This document shows positions 7,655-25,446 of a DNA stretch of 28,944 bases, one piece after another. The notes beneath the pieces were generated by a model, which was not told the origin of the DNA, made no database searches, and saw only the letters and a list, made by a program, of their open reading frames with translations. The position numbers and the translations under genes were made by a program. This DNA is from a virus (Duplodnaviria > Heunggongvirae > Uroviricota > Caudoviricetes), in the IMG/VR virus record IMGVR_UViG_2667527522_000007. One strand, given 5' to 3'. How positions within the stretch are numbered: position 1 is the first letter of the stretch; the number at the start of each line of letters is the position of its first letter.

Positions 7655-8029
7655 ATGATGCCAGTTAGCCGTAATCTCTGCATTTTCTTAAACGTTGGTT
7701 TGGGAGAAGCGGCAAAACGGAATGTGGGAACAGGGGAAAATCAGATACCTGATATGTCATCATATGCATCAGGTTCAGGCTGGCGAAAAATGCCAGATGG
7801 TTCAATTGAACAGTGGGGACGAATTAGTTTTCCTGGTGAACACGGGCCTGTATCCGCCAATGTTTCATTCCCGATTCCATTTACACAGACACCGGGCATT
7901 GTAATTGTGTGCGATGGTGGTTTCGGGGGCGGGAATATGTGGGGGGCGACCAACTGGAGCACTACCGGCTTCATAGCTCACTGCAATTATGGTCTTGAAG
8001 GTGGTGCGTTTTTCGCTAAGGGCTGGTAA
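7655..8029 (+). CDS. Alternative tail-fibre C-terminal segment (Sv'-like), silent in this orientation
   Basis: Plus-strand ORF entering at site A with ...[11 protein letters not shown]...; Gly-rich tip; stop overlaps the next ATG (TAATGATG). Confidence 0.6.
7683..7708. repeat. Invertase crossover site A (gix/hix-like 26-bp site)
   Basis: TTTTCTTAAACGTTGGTTTGGGAGAA; 14 bp (7695-7708) is the exact reverse complement of 9508-9521. Confidence 0.6.
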
Positions 8030-8472
8030 TGATGAAATATCTGTACGTAAACAACCTGGCATATCCTTACGAACTTCAGTCTCTTTATGTTGAAAAAGGT
8101 GAATGGCCTGAAGAAAAAGGTGTTGATATAGACGAAGTAATTTTCAGGGAATATTTCTATGACACACCACCAGAAGGAAAATACAGATGTGTTGGAGAAG
8201 ATGGACTGCCTGCATGGGCAGATATTCCTCCACCAACACGTGAAGAACAAATTGCATCAGCCGAAACTAAAAAGCAGCAATTGATTAATCAGGCCAACGA
8301 TTATATGAACAGTAGACAATGGGTTGGTAAAGCGGCTATTGGTCGTCTGAAAGGTGAGGAACTGGCGCAATATAATTTGTGGCTGGATTATCTGGACGCA
8401 CTGGAGCTGGTCGATACTTCCAGTGCACCAGATATTGAATGGCCTACTCCTCCGGCAGTTCAGGCCAGATGA
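8029..8472 (+). CDS. Alternative tail fibre assembly chaperone (Tfa')
   Basis: 147 aa; C-terminal motif LDYLDALELVDTSSAPDIEWPTPP parallels the C-terminus of the convergent Tfa. Confidence 0.75.
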   Translation: MMKYLYVNNLAYPYELQSLYVEKGEWPEEKGVDIDEVIFREYFYDTPPEGKYRCVGEDGLPAWADIPPPTREEQIASAETKKQQLINQANDYMNSRQWVGKAAIGRLKGEELAQYNLWLDYLDALELVDTSSAPDIEWPTPPAVQAR

Positions 8473-21053: not shown

Positions 21054-22087
21054 TGAGCAAGAAAAAAGGGAAAACACCGCGACCTGCGGCAAAAACAATC
21101 ACCGCCAGCGCCCCGAAAATGGAAGCATTCACCTTTGGCGAGCCGGTGCCGGTACTCGACCGCCGTGACATTCTGGATTACGTCGAGTGCATCAGTAACG
21201 GCAGATGGTATGAGCCGCCGGTCAGCTTTACCGGTCTGGCAAAAAGCCTGCGTGCTGCCGTGCATCACAGCTCACCGATTTACGTCAAACGTAATATTCT
21301 GGCTTCAACGTTTATCCCGCACCCGTGGCTTTCCCAGCAGGATTTCAGCCGTTTTGTGCTGGATTTTCTGGTGTTCGGTAATGCGTTTCTGGAAAAGCGT
21401 TACAGCACCACCGGTAAGGTCATCAGACTGGAAACCTCACCGGCAAAATATACCCGCCGTGGCGTGGAGGAGGATGTTTACTGGTGGGTGCCGTCCTTCA
21501 ACGAGCCGACAGCCTTCACACCCGGCTCCGTGTTTCACCTGCTGGAGCCGGATATTAATCAGGAGTTGTACGGCCTGCCGGAATATCTCAGCGCCCTTAA
21601 TTCTGCCTGGCTGAATGAGTCGGCCACGCTGTTCCGCCGAAAGTATTACGAAAACGGCGCACATGCCGGATACATCATGTACGTTACCGATGCCGTGCAG
21701 GATCGCAACGATATCGAAATGCTTCGCGAAAACATGGTGAAGTCGAAAGGCCGCAACAACTTTAAAAACCTGTTTCTCTATGCCCCGCAGGGGAAAGCCG
21801 ACGGCATTAAAATTATCCCGCTCAGTGAAGTGGCGACGAAGGACGATTTTTTTAATATCAAAAAAGCCAGCGCCGCTGACCTGCTGGACGCACACCGCAT
21901 CCCCTTTCAGTTGATGGGTGGCAAGCCGGAGAACGTCGGGTCACTGGGCGATATTGAGAAAGTGGCAAAGGTCTTTGTCCGCAATGAGCTAATCCCGTTA
22001 CAGGACAGGATTCGGGAAATAAACGGCTGGCTCGGTCAGGAGGTCATCCGCTTTAAAAACTACTCACTGGACACTGACAACGGCTGA
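21053..22087 (+). CDS. Q: Portal protein Q
   Basis: 344 aa, same length as P2 gpQ; start overlaps P stop; adjacent to cos. Confidence 0.85.
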   Translation: MSKKKGKTPRPAAKTITASAPKMEAFTFGEPVPVLDRRDILDYVECISNGRWYEPPVSFTGLAKSLRAAVHHSSPIYVKRNILASTFIPHPWLSQQDFSRFVLDFLVFGNAFLEKRYSTTGKVIRLETSPAKYTRRGVEEDVYWWVPSFNEPTAFTPGSVFHLLEPDINQELYGLPEYLSALNSAWLNESATLFRRKYYENGAHAGYIMYVTDAVQDRNDIEMLRENMVKSKGRNNFKNLFLYAPQGKADGIKIIPLSEVATKDDFFNIKKASAADLLDAHRIPFQLMGGKPENVGSLGDIEKVAKVFVRNELIPLQDRIREINGWLGQEVIRFKNYSLDTDNG

Positions 22088-22092
22088 ACATC

Positions 22093-22114
22093 GCCGCCTG
22101 CGGGCGGCTTTTTT
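22093..22114 (+). terminator. Rho-independent terminator after Q
   Basis: gccgcc-tgcg-ggcggc followed by tttttt. Confidence 0.6.
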
Positions 22115-22256
22115 ACACCCCGCCATCACGCCCTCACACGCTCACCACCGCACAAAACAGCCCGCAGACACACCAACGCCCCGGCGAACAATCTAAACGC
22201 CATCACGACGCGCTCAGACGCTGAAAAAATAAAATCAGCACCACCGCCAGCGCGCA

Positions 22257-22275
22257 GTGCTTTCCCCGCCTCGCC
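22257..22275. other. cos cohesive-end site (19 nt)
   Basis: gtgctttccccgcctcgcc is the reverse complement of GGCGAGGCGGGGAAAGCAC, the P2 cohesive end as I remember it; lies just after Q as in P2. Confidence 0.6.
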
Positions 22276-22560
22276 CGCCCGCTTCACGGGGCGGTTTTAA
22301 TGCAGTTGCATAGATACTATGGATCCGCACCAGTCCTGACCGCACGCCGCCTGAACGGACATCCCCAACGCATGCAAAAACATTCACTTGTTGCATGCAT
22401 AGCTTTTTAAGTACGCCATACCGCAACTGTACATTTTTAAGCAATTGGCAACTTTAAAAAATTTACATTGCTTTCAAGACCTTATCATCCGTAGTCTCTG
22501 TTTTTTACTTTGAGCTACATCAATAAAATCTCAAACATGTTTAATGCAAAGCCCTTGTTA

Positions 22561-22615
22561 CACAACATAGAATGTATGCCTAGAAACAACGACATACTAT
22601 ATGTTGTGTTTTTCC
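22561..22615 (+). other. Long imperfect hairpin with U-tract (candidate sRNA 3' end or attenuator) in the accessory cassette
   Basis: cacaacata...tatgttgtg 9-bp outer stem with an inner gtatg/catac stem, followed by ttttt; possible promoter TTTACA-15-TATCAT about 80 bp upstream (22462-22488). Confidence 0.3.
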
Positions 22616-22675
22616 GGCTCTCTGTTCGGTGATATGCCAAATCACTTTGCGTTTAAACAGAGCATTATTTCAGGG

Positions 22676-22690
22676 CAAGACTTCGCTCAA
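22676..22690 (+). repeat. 15-bp direct repeat, copy 1 (caagacttcgctcaa)
   Basis: Exact 15-mer repeated at 22940-22954. Confidence 0.5.
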
Positions 22691-22753
22691 AAGTCATTCC
22701 ACCTAAGAAGCGCATATACCGGTGGAAGTTGCCCTCTACTTACAGGAGGCAAT

Positions 22754-22867
22754 ATGAAGAAATGCTATTACTGCATTCTCGTTCTGGCCCTCTTTGGCTA
22801 TCCAAACGGTAGTCCGAGTGGTTTGTCAGTAAACGTCAGTAATATCAATGTCAGCATTATGCTTTAA
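22754..22867 (+). CDS. Small 37-aa hydrophobic peptide, function unknown (candidate moron or small toxin-like peptide)
   Basis: AGGAGG 4 nt upstream of ATG; MKKCYYCILVLALFGYPNGSPSGLSVNVSNINVSIML; terminator immediately downstream; the 88-aa track ORF 22601..22867 has no RBS. Confidence 0.3.
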   Translation: MKKCYYCILVLALFGYPNGSPSGLSVNVSNINVSIML

Positions 22868-22880
22868 TATGCTTCAAACA

Positions 22881-22910
22881 AAAAAACCACCTGCCAGGGT
22901 GGTTTTTTTG
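22881..22910. terminator. Bidirectional rho-independent terminator (A-tract, hairpin, T-tract)
   Basis: aaaaaaccacc-tgccag-ggtggttttttt; could terminate both the small-ORF transcript and the convergent early operon ending with A. Confidence 0.6.
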
Positions 22911-22939
22911 CGCCCATCATCAATACGATGAAAGACTGA

Positions 22940-22954
22940 CAAGACTTCGCTCAA
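22940..22954 (+). repeat. 15-bp direct repeat, copy 2 (caagacttcgctcaa)
   Basis: Exact copy of 22676-22690; the pair brackets the small ORF and terminator. Confidence 0.5.
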
Positions 22955-23169
22955 GACGAATTATGCGTCGACATAAGGTTACCCGCAATGATTTTATTAG
23001 ACTAAATGGATGGCCTTTTATGACCCGGATCAAACGGCTGTCCTTACCGACATGCTAGTCACTCAATAGCATTTAGCCTTCTAATTCAGCATGCTATTGA
23101 CCTTCTGCTGCCCCATAACTGCTCCGCATAAGCCATTCAATGCCATATCAAATCACGTTGTGTTTTTAC

Positions 23170-25446
23170 TCAAATGGGTAACGAGAACCCCGGCCACTCA
23201 TCAGCAACCGGATACGTGAATTTTTTCCCGTCATAATTTACGGTCGCGCCACGCGCCAGCGCCTCAAGCTCCCATCGTTGCGGCCTGATACCGTTCTGAG
23301 CGAGGTCAACGCGGATACGGGTAATTTGCATTCTTTCCGACCGGGTCAGTCTGGCCGATGGTGCAATTTCATGTGGTTTTAACGGGCTTCCGTTTCTTTG
23401 CTGACGATTTGGTGTTCTCAGTCCGTGTTTTAATGCGCCCCTGAGCGCCATCACGACCTCCGGGTCACTCCATTCGATAACACCGTCATCTACCAGATTA
23501 AGCACTGCTGCGGCGTGCTCAGAAGGTGTGGGAGCCGGTAACGAAGTATCACCACCGGTGAGCTTTCCACAGTTATTGACAGGACTCCGAGGCGCGGCGA
23601 TGCCGCTTTTTAAAGTCAAAGGCTCAACGACCGGAACTTTCGGCACAATGCGCCAGTCCGTCGTTCTGGTGATATGAATATGACGCGCGCCGAGATGCGG
23701 CGCGTAAATGCCGACCACTCTCTCGACTTCTTCCTCGTATTCGTTAACGTCATCCGACGGGCTACGGGCGACCCTGACAGTCTGACAATCGCGCGGGACA
23801 TTTGCCCCGCCCTGCGCGCTGATATACAGCGCAAAATCGCCACTGTCTGCGGCGGCGCGTGCAGCCTCCACGCGTTCGTCAAATTCATCAGCAATGCTGA
23901 CGCCGCGAGGCAATTTACGTAGCTCACGGTAAGCTCCCATTGTCGGCAGGCCAACCGTTTTAAATTGCGGGATGCGCCACGTTGATGCCCATGCGGTAAC
24001 AGCCGCCGCAGTATCTTTCAGCGGCCTACCGGTATCATTATCGAGCTGACCATCCAGTGCATAGCCGTCGATGTTTTTTGAGATGTATTTCGCGATATAT
24101 CCCGCAGCACCGCCCCGGTTAAGGTGTTTTGCCTGAAAACGGTTTCGCGCGGCTCCTCTTTCGTCGCCATCCTCTTTGAGCGCATAGCGACGCATGATTT
24201 CAATAATCTGGTTACGCTGGCGTGGATTACAAAAAAGCATCATATGCCAGTGCGGCGTTCCGTCGTGGTGTGGCTCGACGACACGCAAACCGTAGACCTG
24301 TAAGTCATTATCCTTGAATGCCGTGCGCATCAGGCTCCAGATACGGCAGAGATATCGCTGCGCATCCTTTGGATTAAATGCCTCATCATTCCAGCCGTGA
24401 TTAAGCTGGACGGTTTTACTTTCGCCTTTTCCGACCTGACGTGCCGGGTGATACTTTGACGGCGCGGTCAGCGTGATAAACATCCCCACATCACCCTCTG
24501 CGGCGGCGTAACGCTCAATACCGGCAATGGTGTTCATCAGCTCCATCCGGCGAATTTCAGGATTAGAAATACTGCCCATCACCTTACTGATAAGGTCGAT
24601 GCGCTCGCCGGTTTCCCTGTTTTCAAGGTCACACGATTTAAGAAATTCCAGATTTGCCTGGCGGCGCGCACGCACATCACGAATGGCATGTTTACTGGCA
24701 TAAGGAGAACGGTCTTTATTGACCTCCCCGACAGCTATCAGTAACGCTTCATGCCAGCGCATACGCTGGCCTTTAAGCTGATGAGTCCACCACTCATCGT
24801 TAAACAGACGGGCAATGGCAGAATATGCCTGCCTCGTGGTCATCTGTCCTTTACGGTATTTTTTCCAGTAGAGAGGGGAAATATTGAAAGCACGTGCAGC
24901 GCCAGCAACATGACCATAGAGGTGAGCCTGCGCCTCATCCGTAAACAGCGATTCTTTCTCGCCATGCGCATCCACCCAGGCATCGCTGAGTTCCTCATAC
25001 ATCATGAAAAGCTGCGATGAGATACGGGCGGCAAACTTTTTCAGCTCCTTGTCATTCATTCCCGGCAGGCGCGCATAGTGGTCACGCTCTGCCAGAAACA
25101 GCATCGACGCGTCGGTGTTCATTTCATGGCGCTGATTCACACGCTCAATGCGCGGCCATAAACGACGCTGAAAAGTGGATGTGAGGAAATAAAACCCGTG
25201 CACCGGGCTTTTATTGCGCCGGATGTAGTCATAGCGTGAAGTAAACAGCGAGCGCAAAAAGTAAGGCAGGCGGTTAATCGTGGATAAAACACCTTGCACC
25301 TGACGCATCTCGTCACGTGTAAGAGGTCTTTCGCGCCCGACAGCCTCGCGTGGCGCGTTCCATGCATAAGCACCGGTAAACGCCTTACCGGTGCCTGCGG
25401 CAAATGCTGACGGAGGGACAAAACGCCCGGAGGCTTTAACGGCCAT
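23170..25446 (-). CDS. A: Replication initiation protein A (rolling-circle nickase family); start chosen at MAVKASGRF
   Basis: About 758 aa; P2 gpA-like by length and position at the end of the early operon. Confidence 0.85.
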   Translation of the reverse strand: MAVKASGRFVPPSAFAAGTGKAFTGAYAWNAPREAVGRERPLTRDEMRQVQGVLSTINRLPYFLRSLFTSRYDYIRRNKSPVHGFYFLTSTFQRRLWPRIERVNQRHEMNTDASMLFLAERDHYARLPGMNDKELKKFAARISSQLFMMYEELSDAWVDAHGEKESLFTDEAQAHLYGHVAGAARAFNISPLYWKKYRKGQMTTRQAYSAIARLFNDEWWTHQLKGQRMRWHEALLIAVGEVNKDRSPYASKHAIRDVRARRQANLEFLKSCDLENRETGERIDLISKVMGSISNPEIRRMELMNTIAGIERYAAAEGDVGMFITLTAPSKYHPARQVGKGESKTVQLNHGWNDEAFNPKDAQRYLCRIWSLMRTAFKDNDLQVYGLRVVEPHHDGTPHWHMMLFCNPRQRNQIIEIMRRYALKEDGDERGAARNRFQAKHLNRGGAAGYIAKYISKNIDGYALDGQLDNDTGRPLKDTAAAVTAWASTWRIPQFKTVGLPTMGAYRELRKLPRGVSIADEFDERVEAARAAADSGDFALYISAQGGANVPRDCQTVRVARSPSDDVNEYEEEVERVVGIYAPHLGARHIHITRTTDWRIVPKVPVVEPLTLKSGIAAPRSPVNNCGKLTGGDTSLPAPTPSEHAAAVLNLVDDGVIEWSDPEVVMALRGALKHGLRTPNRQQRNGSPLKPHEIAPSARLTRSERMQITRIRVDLAQNGIRPQRWELEALARGATVNYDGKKFTYPVADEWPGFSLPI

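Follow-up and report, generated by a model that had tools for sequence, protein, structure and literature searches.

A conserved mobile cassette encoding a small peptide and a predicted small RNA between cos and gene A of a P2-like prophage

Related modules and how the cassette compares

Type I toxin–antitoxin (TA) systems combine a small hydrophobic protein (fewer than 60 residues), translated from a target mRNA, with an adjacent antisense RNA gene; the protein is toxic without the RNA antitoxin, which is labile, while the mRNA is stable. In tisB/istR-1, zorO/orzO, shoB/ohsC and dinQ/agrB, the short 5′ seed of a small RNA (sRNA) pairs far upstream of the ribosome-binding site (RBS), within a long leader rich in structure, and the mRNA is translationally inert as a primary transcript. 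Here we describe a locus that invites comparison with these systems, found in the DNA of a tailed phage (Caudoviricetes; IMG/VR record IMGVR_UViG_2667527522_000007), a P2-like prophage whose whole analysed stretch of 28,944 nt we call the window. Judged by its sequence, the segment 22453-23010 is a discrete two-gene cassette, conserved and mobile, that encodes a peptide of 37 residues and a predicted sRNA. By analogy with described systems, the reading that fits it best is a par-like variant of a type I TA module or of an sRNA-controlled small-protein module. The cassette is almost entirely unannotated and, as far as we have found, undescribed.

The architecture of par (RNA I/Fst–RNA II), from the Enterococcus faecalis plasmid pAD1, has been described (PMC7472228), and much of it recurs here. 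Both loci have convergent promoters (inferred in the case of the cassette) and a shared bidirectional intrinsic terminator that yields complementary 3′ stem-loops, and in both of them direct repeats transcribed in opposite directions offer a second region of RNA–RNA complementarity. An intramolecular hairpin that hides the Shine–Dalgarno (SD) sequence, a peptide of around 35 residues, and carriage by plasmids and phages are also common to the two. In contrast, par contains two repeats (DRa and DRb) over the initiation region, while the cassette contains one, 77-78 nt upstream of the ATG; the hosts of par are Firmicutes and those of the cassette Enterobacteriaceae; the PXXXG(C) motif and the charged C-terminal tail are both missing from the cassette peptide; and the promoter in the toxin position is an FNR-type homologue of the nrdD promoter. 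Thus, measured against membership of the par/Fst family, the convergent promoters and the shared terminator agree, while the repeat and the toxin do not.

TimP, of 38 residues, provides a precedent for a type I toxin with a signal sequence (PMC7667032). As in the TimP/TimR system (ryfA) of Salmonella and other enterobacteria, the cassette encodes a hydrophobic peptide of 37-38 residues with a signal-sequence-like N-terminus and, alongside it, a short trans-complementary sRNA, for which we propose the same repressive role. However, TimR is divergent, whereas the cassette sRNA is convergent, the two show no similarity, either in sequence or by Rfam (RyfA, RF00126), and timPR belongs to the chromosomal core, whereas the cassette is cargo of mobile elements. 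The tisB, zorO, shoB and dinQ systems differ from it in gene orientation, in the absence of a shared terminator and in their unrelated toxins, and tisB and dinQ are controlled by the SOS response rather than by an FNR-type promoter. Finally, a hotspot for defence cargo has been described in P2 between gpA and gpQ (PMC9122126). Like phage morons and the old/tin cargo of this cos-proximal hotspot, the cassette is an AT-rich, self-contained unit of promoter, gene and terminator placed between backbone genes, but it encodes no protein longer than 37 residues and no defence domain recognised by PADLOC, so gene-based surveys of the hotspot would see the locus as empty.

The cassette, its coding sequence and its predicted RNAs

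In the window, the portal gene Q ends at 22087, a P2-type cos site lies at 22257-22275, and the minus-strand replication gene, A, stops at 23170, so that 22276-23169 is exactly the gap between cos and A. An earlier note, made from the letters and their open reading frames (ORFs), had described this gap as AT-rich, about 0.9 kb long, free of ORFs above 88 codons and lacking old, tin and orf91. A scan of GC content and the list of ORFs bear this out: GC is 0.36-0.45 over 22400-23150 versus 0.52-0.60 on either side, and the longest ORF in the gap, of 88 residues, is the 37-residue ORF prolonged upstream into its leader. Given that orf91 has 91 codons and old and tin several hundred each, none of them can be present between cos and A. 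The PGAP annotation calls nothing in the gap. The end-to-end match to conserved cos-flanking DNA that would have spoken for empty spacer was not found, since the alignment with other P2-like phages is limited to 22090-22399, past which their cargo differs. Instead, the idea of a small RNA- or peptide-based module, raised in the same note, is supported by a coding signature, by a conserved seed and target, and by the recurrence of the cassette as an autonomous unit.

The coding signature is found in the 37-codon ORF, which, as had been noted, is preceded by a strong RBS (AGGAGG, 5 nt before the ATG). Among 22 distinct phage-clade alleles, 10 of the 13 variable sites in the ORF fall at codon position 3, and the synonymous to non-synonymous ratio is 9:4 in frame versus 1:11 in the other frames. 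The dN/dS of the ORF is 0.09-0.36 across all lineages. All five lineages keep a peptide of 37-38 residues, at 56-69% identity, together with the start context and the position of the stop. From this pattern of substitutions, the ORF is a gene under purifying selection.

The peptide has an invariant core (CILVL-x-L, GYP and a G-S-x-S-G region), from which the copies in Kluyvera and in locus L073 deviate slightly. Its only charged residues are K2 and K3, with none past position 3, residues 4-15 have a mean Kyte-Doolittle hydropathy of +2.2, and the tail alternates hydrophobic and polar residues in the manner of a beta-strand. Given this signal-anchor-like N-terminus, the invariant GS-x-SG and the alternating tail, the most likely fate of the peptide is insertion into the inner membrane or passage across it. 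It is, as in type I TA systems, a hydrophobic protein of fewer than 60 residues encoded by the putative target mRNA, and the adjacent antisense RNA gene is present by prediction only.

Searches returned few relatives of the peptide. There was no match in Pfam, NCBIfam or PADLOC (0 families at E<=10 in the latter), the best match in PHROGs had E=0.34, and the Pfam family Fst/Ldr gave no match at E<=10 for four members of the peptide family. A HMMER scan of 1.84 billion proteins found seven relatives, every one of them a copy of the cassette, and a word-indexed protein search found 3 near-identical entries only. A degenerate pattern of the peptide was absent from species-representative genomes and, in IMG/VR and metagenomes, was found in two phage clades only. 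In the literature, we found no paper with the peptide or seed sequence.

The cassette itself is widespread. It occurs in around 150 of 5,426 complete E. coli genomes, and in 101 of those it is the sole content between cos and A. Around 400 plasmids, mostly conjugative plasmids of the IncFIB/IncFII/IncHI1B types, carry it at 75-77% identity; by tblastn, there are 390 in Klebsiella and 2 in Enterobacter. Two further diverged copies were found in Kluyvera georgiana and in a metagenome contig. Nothing is annotated under the match in the plasmid records examined, and one phage record lists the ORF as a hypothetical protein. The neighbouring genes are unrelated in each context (P2-like prophages, IncF/IncHI1B plasmids and Zot/secretin loci), and the whole unit of about 550 bp is preserved at 65-77% identity across them, with conserved functional islands and rewritten spacers between these islands when lineages are compared. 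For the intact cassette, no "empty-site" or single-repeat version was found; the matches with a single copy are either contig-end cuts or a deletion remnant. In this remnant (a prophage remnant, L034, 500-715), the peptide ORF runs into unrelated sequence after its first 16 codons, right beside helix-turn-helix repressor and integrase genes, which implies a large internal deletion.

Other genes accompany the cassette in some of its carriers. The most diverged copies (L071, 1301-3625, and L073, 2806-4028) adjoin secretin genes, and in L071 also a Zot-type gene, which suggests that filamentous (inovirus-like) prophages are a third class of carrier element. In a sister clade at around 86% identity, an ImmA/IrrE gene and one more gene are inserted on the cos side: these are a Peptidase_M78 (ImmA/IrrE) gene of 161 residues and a 199-residue protein without Pfam match (L003, 1948-2433, and L005, 2473-3624), and a 486-bp coding sequence is found at the equivalent position in L002 (1017-1502), together with a different 159-residue protein without Pfam match. 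This extra cargo may be a separate candidate system. A 486-bp gene to the left of the Enterobacter hormaechei plasmid cassette was considered as a relative of ImmA/IrrE and rejected, since it is unrelated to the phage-clade gene; thus, the cassette has no conserved partner gene.

The pair of 15-bp direct repeats seen in the earlier note (CAAGACTTCGCTCAA) is present at 22676-22690 and 22940-22954. Its 12-nt core occurs at just two sites in the 29-kb window, and 0 of 100 shuffles gave two matches. Given that this direct DNA repeat would be transcribed from opposite strands, the two predicted RNAs are complementary: the first copy lies in the leader of the peptide mRNA and contains the seed target, and the convergent sRNA would begin with the seed. 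The loop of the target has an unpaired probability of 0.96. The 12-nt core of the target is invariant in 11 aligned representatives, except for a C>U change in Kluyvera that preserves a G.U pair, at sRNA nt 13. The predicted duplex extends over 15-17 contiguous bp from the +1 of the sRNA in all lineages but subclade B2, in which the first base only is mismatched, and 96% of the cells in the duplex alignment are paired. Nine sequences have C-G as the pair between sRNA nt 14 and mRNA -1; the metagenome copy has U-A, and the window has U.G.

The promoter of the predicted sRNA shows a similar pattern of islands and spacers. Its TTGCG(G/A) and CATAAT hexamers and their 17-nt spacing are invariant across lineages, while phage and plasmid clades differ at around 60% of the bases in the spacer. 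After the -10 there are six variable bases, and conservation restarts exactly at G 22952, the predicted +1. The predicted sRNA has a fold z-score of -3.6, and in the plasmid copies the sequence of its stem-loop is rewritten but still folds, with the three-part layout (seed, stem-loop and terminator) retained. The bidirectional terminator that had been noted is indeed present, with perfect 13-nt arms; it is identical in every lineage bar one loop base in E. hormaechei, and, being shared, it gives a complementary 3′ overlap of about 34 nt. With permissive thresholds, Rfam searches of the window and of a plasmid copy gave at best 22-26 bits versus gathering scores of 47-60, all of these matches centred on the terminator (for instance, OrzO-P with 23.7 bits versus a gathering score of 60), and RyfA (RF00126) had no match at E<=1 in either sequence. 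Two described sRNAs, KpnR_127 and KpnR_128, were considered as the cassette sRNA and rejected, given that they adjoin a hok gene. The 36-nt terminator sequence (22875-22910) is also found alone, 100% identical, on Salmonella and Citrobacter plasmids without the rest of the cassette.

The leader of the peptide mRNA is predicted to fold into several helices, in which 95% of the alignment cells are paired versus 40-52% in slid controls. These helices contain 5 double-sided compensatory pairs, a number reached by 18 of 500 shuffles, and 6 when the intermolecular duplex is included, reached by 4 of 500, counts that are not probabilities. For example, the stem CUCUGUU/AACAGAG becomes CUCUGCC/GGCAGAG in one lineage, and the hairpin at 22697-22727 shows a change from A-U to G-C. 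In helix (i), which pairs the flank of the seed target with the anti-SD segment, GGUGGC/GCCGCC is replaced by GGUGAC/GUCACC, and the window has AGGGCAA/UUGCCCU. Folding predicts a paired SD in all lineages, the unpaired probability being 0.08-0.40 and mostly 0.08-0.26. An imperfect 30-nt repeat between the leader and the DNA just past the stop of gene A (22625-22654/23136-23165, 73% identity) was considered as a second pairing site and rejected because it is unconserved and in the wrong order; it is probably due to chance.

Table 1. Positions of the cassette features and of the sequences around them (window coordinates unless an accession is given; a point in the strand column stands for no strand).
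Feature	Position	Strand	Remarks
P2-type cos, 19-nt cohesive end GGCGAGGCGGGGAAAGCAC	22257-22275	-	Exact match; 0 expected by chance; left edge of the hotspot
cos-proximal backbone flank, outside the cassette	22276-22399	.	96% identity in phage vB_EcoM-720R8, whose cargo differs past that point
Escherichia nrdD (anaerobic ribonucleotide reductase) promoter homologue	22453-22612	+	Left end of the conserved cassette; from alignments
FNR-type site TTGAGCTACATCAA	22510-22523	+	Homologue of the upstream nrdDG FNR site; sole TTGATN4ATCAA match (<=1 mismatch) in the window
Second FNR-type site	22541-22554	+	Degenerate here (TTAATGCAAAGCCC); TTGATGCAAA.. in all other clades
NrdR-box-like palindrome ACACAACATAGAATGT	22560-22575	+	Left arm of the "long hairpin" 22560-22609
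-10 hexamer TAGAAT	22568-22573	+	Aligned to TAAAAT of the nrdD promoter
NrdR-box-like palindrome ATACTATATGTTGTGT	22594-22609	+	Right arm of the "long hairpin" 22560-22609
Structured 5′ leader of the peptide mRNA, ~173 nt	22581-22753	+	Fold z-score -4.6; consensus fold
Leader stem CUCUGUU/AACAGAG	22620-22626/22656-22662		Inner stem 22628-22633/22641-22646
Leader helix (i)	22672-22678/22730-22736		
sRNA seed target (first repeat copy)	22676-22688	+	Partly exposed hairpin loop CGCUCAA with YUNR-like CUCA inside
Leader hairpin	22697-22703/22721-22727		
Leader anti-SD/SD hairpin	22731-22738/22745-22751		
Shine–Dalgarno AGGAGG	22744-22749	+	GGAGG core kept in all clades
ORF of the 37-residue peptide MKKCYYCILVLALFGYPNGSPSGLSVNVSNINVSIML, stop codon included	22754-22867	+	Coding signature
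Predicted sRNA, 72-75 nt	22878-22952	-	5′ seed GAGCGAAGUCUUG, clade-specific stem-loop, terminator
Bidirectional intrinsic terminator, common to the convergent transcripts	22879-22910	.	Arms 22879-22891/22898-22910, 6-nt loop, A7/T7 flanks
sRNA promoter	22960-22988	-	-35 TTGCGG (22988-22983), 17-nt spacer, -10 CATAAT (22965-22960)
AT-rich TAATAAA upstream of the sRNA promoter	23000-22994	-	
Variable linker, cassette to gene A stop	23011-23169	.	Missing from plasmid and inovirus-like copies
Stand-alone terminator copies	NZ_CP016011.1 64732-64767; NZ_CP137118.1 47780-47815		

Beyond the sRNA promoter, conservation falls: between the two phage clades, variable columns make up 32% of 22991-23169 versus 11-18% within the cassette. 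The linker up to gene A is probably merely the 3′ untranslated tail of the early operon, which would end at the bidirectional terminator.

A promoter homologous to that of nrdD

The promoter of nrdDG is activated by FNR and repressed by NrdR. In a sensitive search of 22400-23169 against the 5,426 E. coli genomes, 22454-22555 matched the treC-nrdD intergenic region at around 79% identity in 5,426 of 5,426. The homology extends over around 160 bp, and none is evident in the alignments past about +30. Over the core from the second FNR-type site to the -10, identity with E. coli nrdD is 77% in the clade of the window and 87-88% in the sister clade. Among species-representative genomes, a shared 22-mer is found in Escherichia and Shigella only, bar one contig of 287 bp in an assembly of Alkalicoccobacillus porphyridii (NZ_VLXZ01000155.1, L038). 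This contig matches the E. coli nrdD promoter region at every base and is almost certainly contamination.

The cassette and the E. coli nrdDG promoter share, along with this sequence and the -10, both FNR-type sites at equal offsets, starting 58 and 27 nt ahead of the -10 in every cassette clade and in K-12 nrdD, that is, the geometry of an nrdDG-type promoter with two such sites upstream of the -10. We take these sites to be the counterparts of the FNR sites of nrdDG, centred near -64.5 and -33.5, positions that were reportedly given by Boston and Atlung in 2003 and by Roca et al. in 2008. Within the phage clades, the half-sites of TTGAGCTACATCAA are invariant, and the sole change lies in the N4 spacer. 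Because of the two FNR-type sites, the promoter is probably switched on without oxygen. From the promoter geometry, we predict an mRNA start at around 22580-22582. In the cassette, the promoter would drive the 37-residue peptide instead of nrdDG.

A promoter-like element had been pointed out in the earlier note, and a promoter is indeed to be expected here, but the operative one is the homologue of the host nrdD promoter, which had not been recognised. A scan for consensus promoters did not exceed chance (1 site versus 1.8 expected); the operative promoters were identified by homology and conservation. The same note had reported a long hairpin with a U-tract, of which the inverted repeat (22560-22569/22600-22609) stands and the reading as an RNA terminator does not, given that 22560-22609 spans the -10 and the predicted start and that a T>G change at 22611 removes the U-tract in the sister clade. 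Its left arm would lie outside the RNA because it overlaps the -10.

The arms of this hairpin resemble NrdR boxes. Relative to the consensus ACACWATATATWGTGT, ACACAACATAGAATGT has 3 mismatches and ATACTATATGTTGTGT has 2, and both are among just 3 matches with <=3 mismatches in the 29 kb, where 0.17 are expected. The NrdR boxes of K-12 nrdDG have a 15-bp linker (PMC12176259), while the linker is 18 bp in the window (34 start to start) and 16 bp in the sister clade (32). The good box 2 of nrdDG is also present in the phage clades, but box 1 is shifted by about 9 bp, with 10-12 bp inserted, which gives spacings of 34 and 32 in place of 31. The window thus does not show the two 16-bp boxes 15-16 bp apart of the NrdR regulon, and no pair at the canonical spacing of 31-32 bp was found in the plasmid or filamentous-phage-like clades. 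Only in the phage lineage is NrdR control possible, and for the promoter of this window such control is doubtful.

The phage-clade promoters are nearer to E. coli nrdD (87-88% over the core in the sister clade) than to those of the plasmid clade (67-74%; 22490-22555 compared with L004, 2530-2600). This hints at gene conversion with the resident host nrdD promoter, or at its re-capture.

Possible roles of the cassette

Together, these features lead us to favour, with a confidence a little above even, the reading of the cassette as an autonomous mobile type I TA-like module with a par-like layout and an nrdD-derived promoter. In such a module, the promoter with its two FNR-type sites, to which NrdR-box-like sites have been added in the phage clades, would fire anaerobically and yield an mRNA of about 330 nt whose leader would hold the RBS in a hairpin. 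The peptide made from this mRNA would go into or across the inner membrane. A convergent sRNA of about 73 nt, with its own sigma-70 promoter, would terminate at the shared bidirectional terminator, and its first 13-17 nt would pair with the leader hairpin around 65-78 nt upstream of the start codon, keeping translation off and/or triggering decay of the mRNA. Since the footprint of the sRNA covers the 5′ arm of helix (i), whose 3′ arm overlaps the anti-SD, pairing would free the anti-SD to lock the RBS; RNase-mediated decay of the duplex is equally plausible.

Several observations weigh against this reading. When the seed site was blocked in constrained folding of 10 sequences, no consistent change in SD accessibility was seen; an effect on the SD is kept as a hypothesis because both competing helices have covariation behind them. 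The seed and target are nearly invariant, so that the duplex is supported by their conservation and by one double-sided and three one-sided changes, and covariation support is only moderate, given the few events and the derivation of the structures from the same sequences. In the clade of the window, the downstream FNR half-site is mutated (TTAAT) and the sRNA -35 agrees with the consensus at only 3 of 6 positions, and in the window the NrdR-like boxes are 34 bp apart instead of 31-32 bp. The peptide lacks the charged tail and the hydrophobic helix of around 20 residues that are typical of type I toxins, and it matches no toxin family. In addition, two Klebsiella pneumoniae strains with published RNA data are without the cassette, namely MGH 78578 (pKPN3; dRNA-seq, RIP-seq and RIL-seq, PMC10907235) and SGH10 (pSGH10; RIL-seq, PMC11347178).

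The main competitor, which we consider fairly unlikely but take seriously, is a benign moron, in which a non-toxic small membrane or periplasmic protein made anaerobically would act in superinfection exclusion or as an envelope or anaerobic modulator, the sRNA merely tuning its level, with no logic of addiction or abortive infection. The short hydrophobic core, the missing charged tail, the GS-x-SG and the alternating tail are indeed unlike pore-forming type I toxins, TimP can be non-toxic at endogenous levels (PMC7667032), an AT-rich unit of promoter, ORF and terminator is the classic moron pattern, and FNR-type control fits a physiological niche better than a stress trigger. However, three layers of repression (a conditional promoter, an SD-sequestering hairpin and an antisense sRNA) are typical of harmful products, and the carriers in the data examined are mobile elements, namely conjugative plasmids, a defence hotspot and loci with filamentous-phage genes.

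An extended form of the TA-like reading, in which the cassette belongs to a new family of killer or exclusion modules controlled by RNA, with a toxin wired to the anaerobic ribonucleotide-reductase promoter of the host, and thus a type I TA-based abortive infection system in "empty" hotspots, is unlikely and offered as speculation. A secreted or membrane peptide would in that case be armed by its carrier solely where FNR is active, for instance in the gut, and in the phage lineage arming might also need NrdR to sense a disturbed dATP/ATP pool. If the labile sRNA were lost, either because a phage shuts off host transcription or because the plasmid is lost, the cell would be killed or arrested.

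It is also conceivable, but very unlikely, that the plus-strand transcript is chiefly a regulatory RNA, non-coding or with dual function, and that the ORF is incidental. Leader and ORF are conserved to a similar degree (13.5% versus 11.4% variable columns), and the long helices of the leader are invariant. Nevertheless, the codon-position bias and low dN/dS are found in the frame of the ORF only, its length, start context and stop are maintained down to 56-69% peptide identity, and the RNA matches no Rfam family. Similarly, we see scarcely any chance that the second repeat, together with AATTAT, is a plus-strand promoter (CTGACA-17-AATTAT, 22936-22964) for a transcript antisense to gene A. This was the sole site from the consensus promoter scan, and its AATTAT, shared as a -10 with the minus-strand CATAAT, is invariant, the -35-like hexamer being CTGACA, CTAGCA or CTGGCA by clade. 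However, nothing downstream is conserved on the plus strand, where contexts differ wholly in plasmids and inovirus-like loci, while the minus-strand product (seed, stem-loop and terminator) is conserved, and such a promoter would leave unexplained an invariant 13-nt "spacer" identical to a leader segment. We give next to no credence to a non-functional relic of a captured nrdD promoter and an early-operon terminator, with the repeat as a recombination or duplication scar. In its favour, PGAP calls nothing, the terminator would end the gene A transcript anyway, and the terminator sequence also stands alone on plasmids; against it, the 550-bp unit is kept in unrelated contexts with its island-and-spacer pattern, purifying selection and compensatory changes, and neither an empty-site nor a single-repeat version of the intact cassette was found.

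Whichever role it has, gene-based surveys would treat this P2 hotspot as empty in 101 E. coli genomes, and around 390 clinical Klebsiella plasmids carry the unit unannotated. If it is a TA or exclusion module, it would be an overlooked determinant of maintenance or defence in medically important plasmids and prophages, an enterobacterial counterpart to the Gram-positive par architecture, and a clear case in which a mobile element times the expression of its cargo with a promoter reused from the host (nrdD, FNR-type). The predictions made here are coordinate-precise (RNA ends, seed and FNR sites), so they are directly testable.

Elsewhere in the window, at 7655-8472 on the plus strand, two ORFs run against the direction of the tail operon around them. 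They encode a Gp53-like tail-fibre C-terminus (124 residues) and a Caudo_TAP tail-fibre assembly protein (147 residues), and the pair lies at the G/FI junction, which is the position of the second (Z/fun) P2 hotspot. It looks like an alternative or invertible tail-fibre cassette, not defence cargo.

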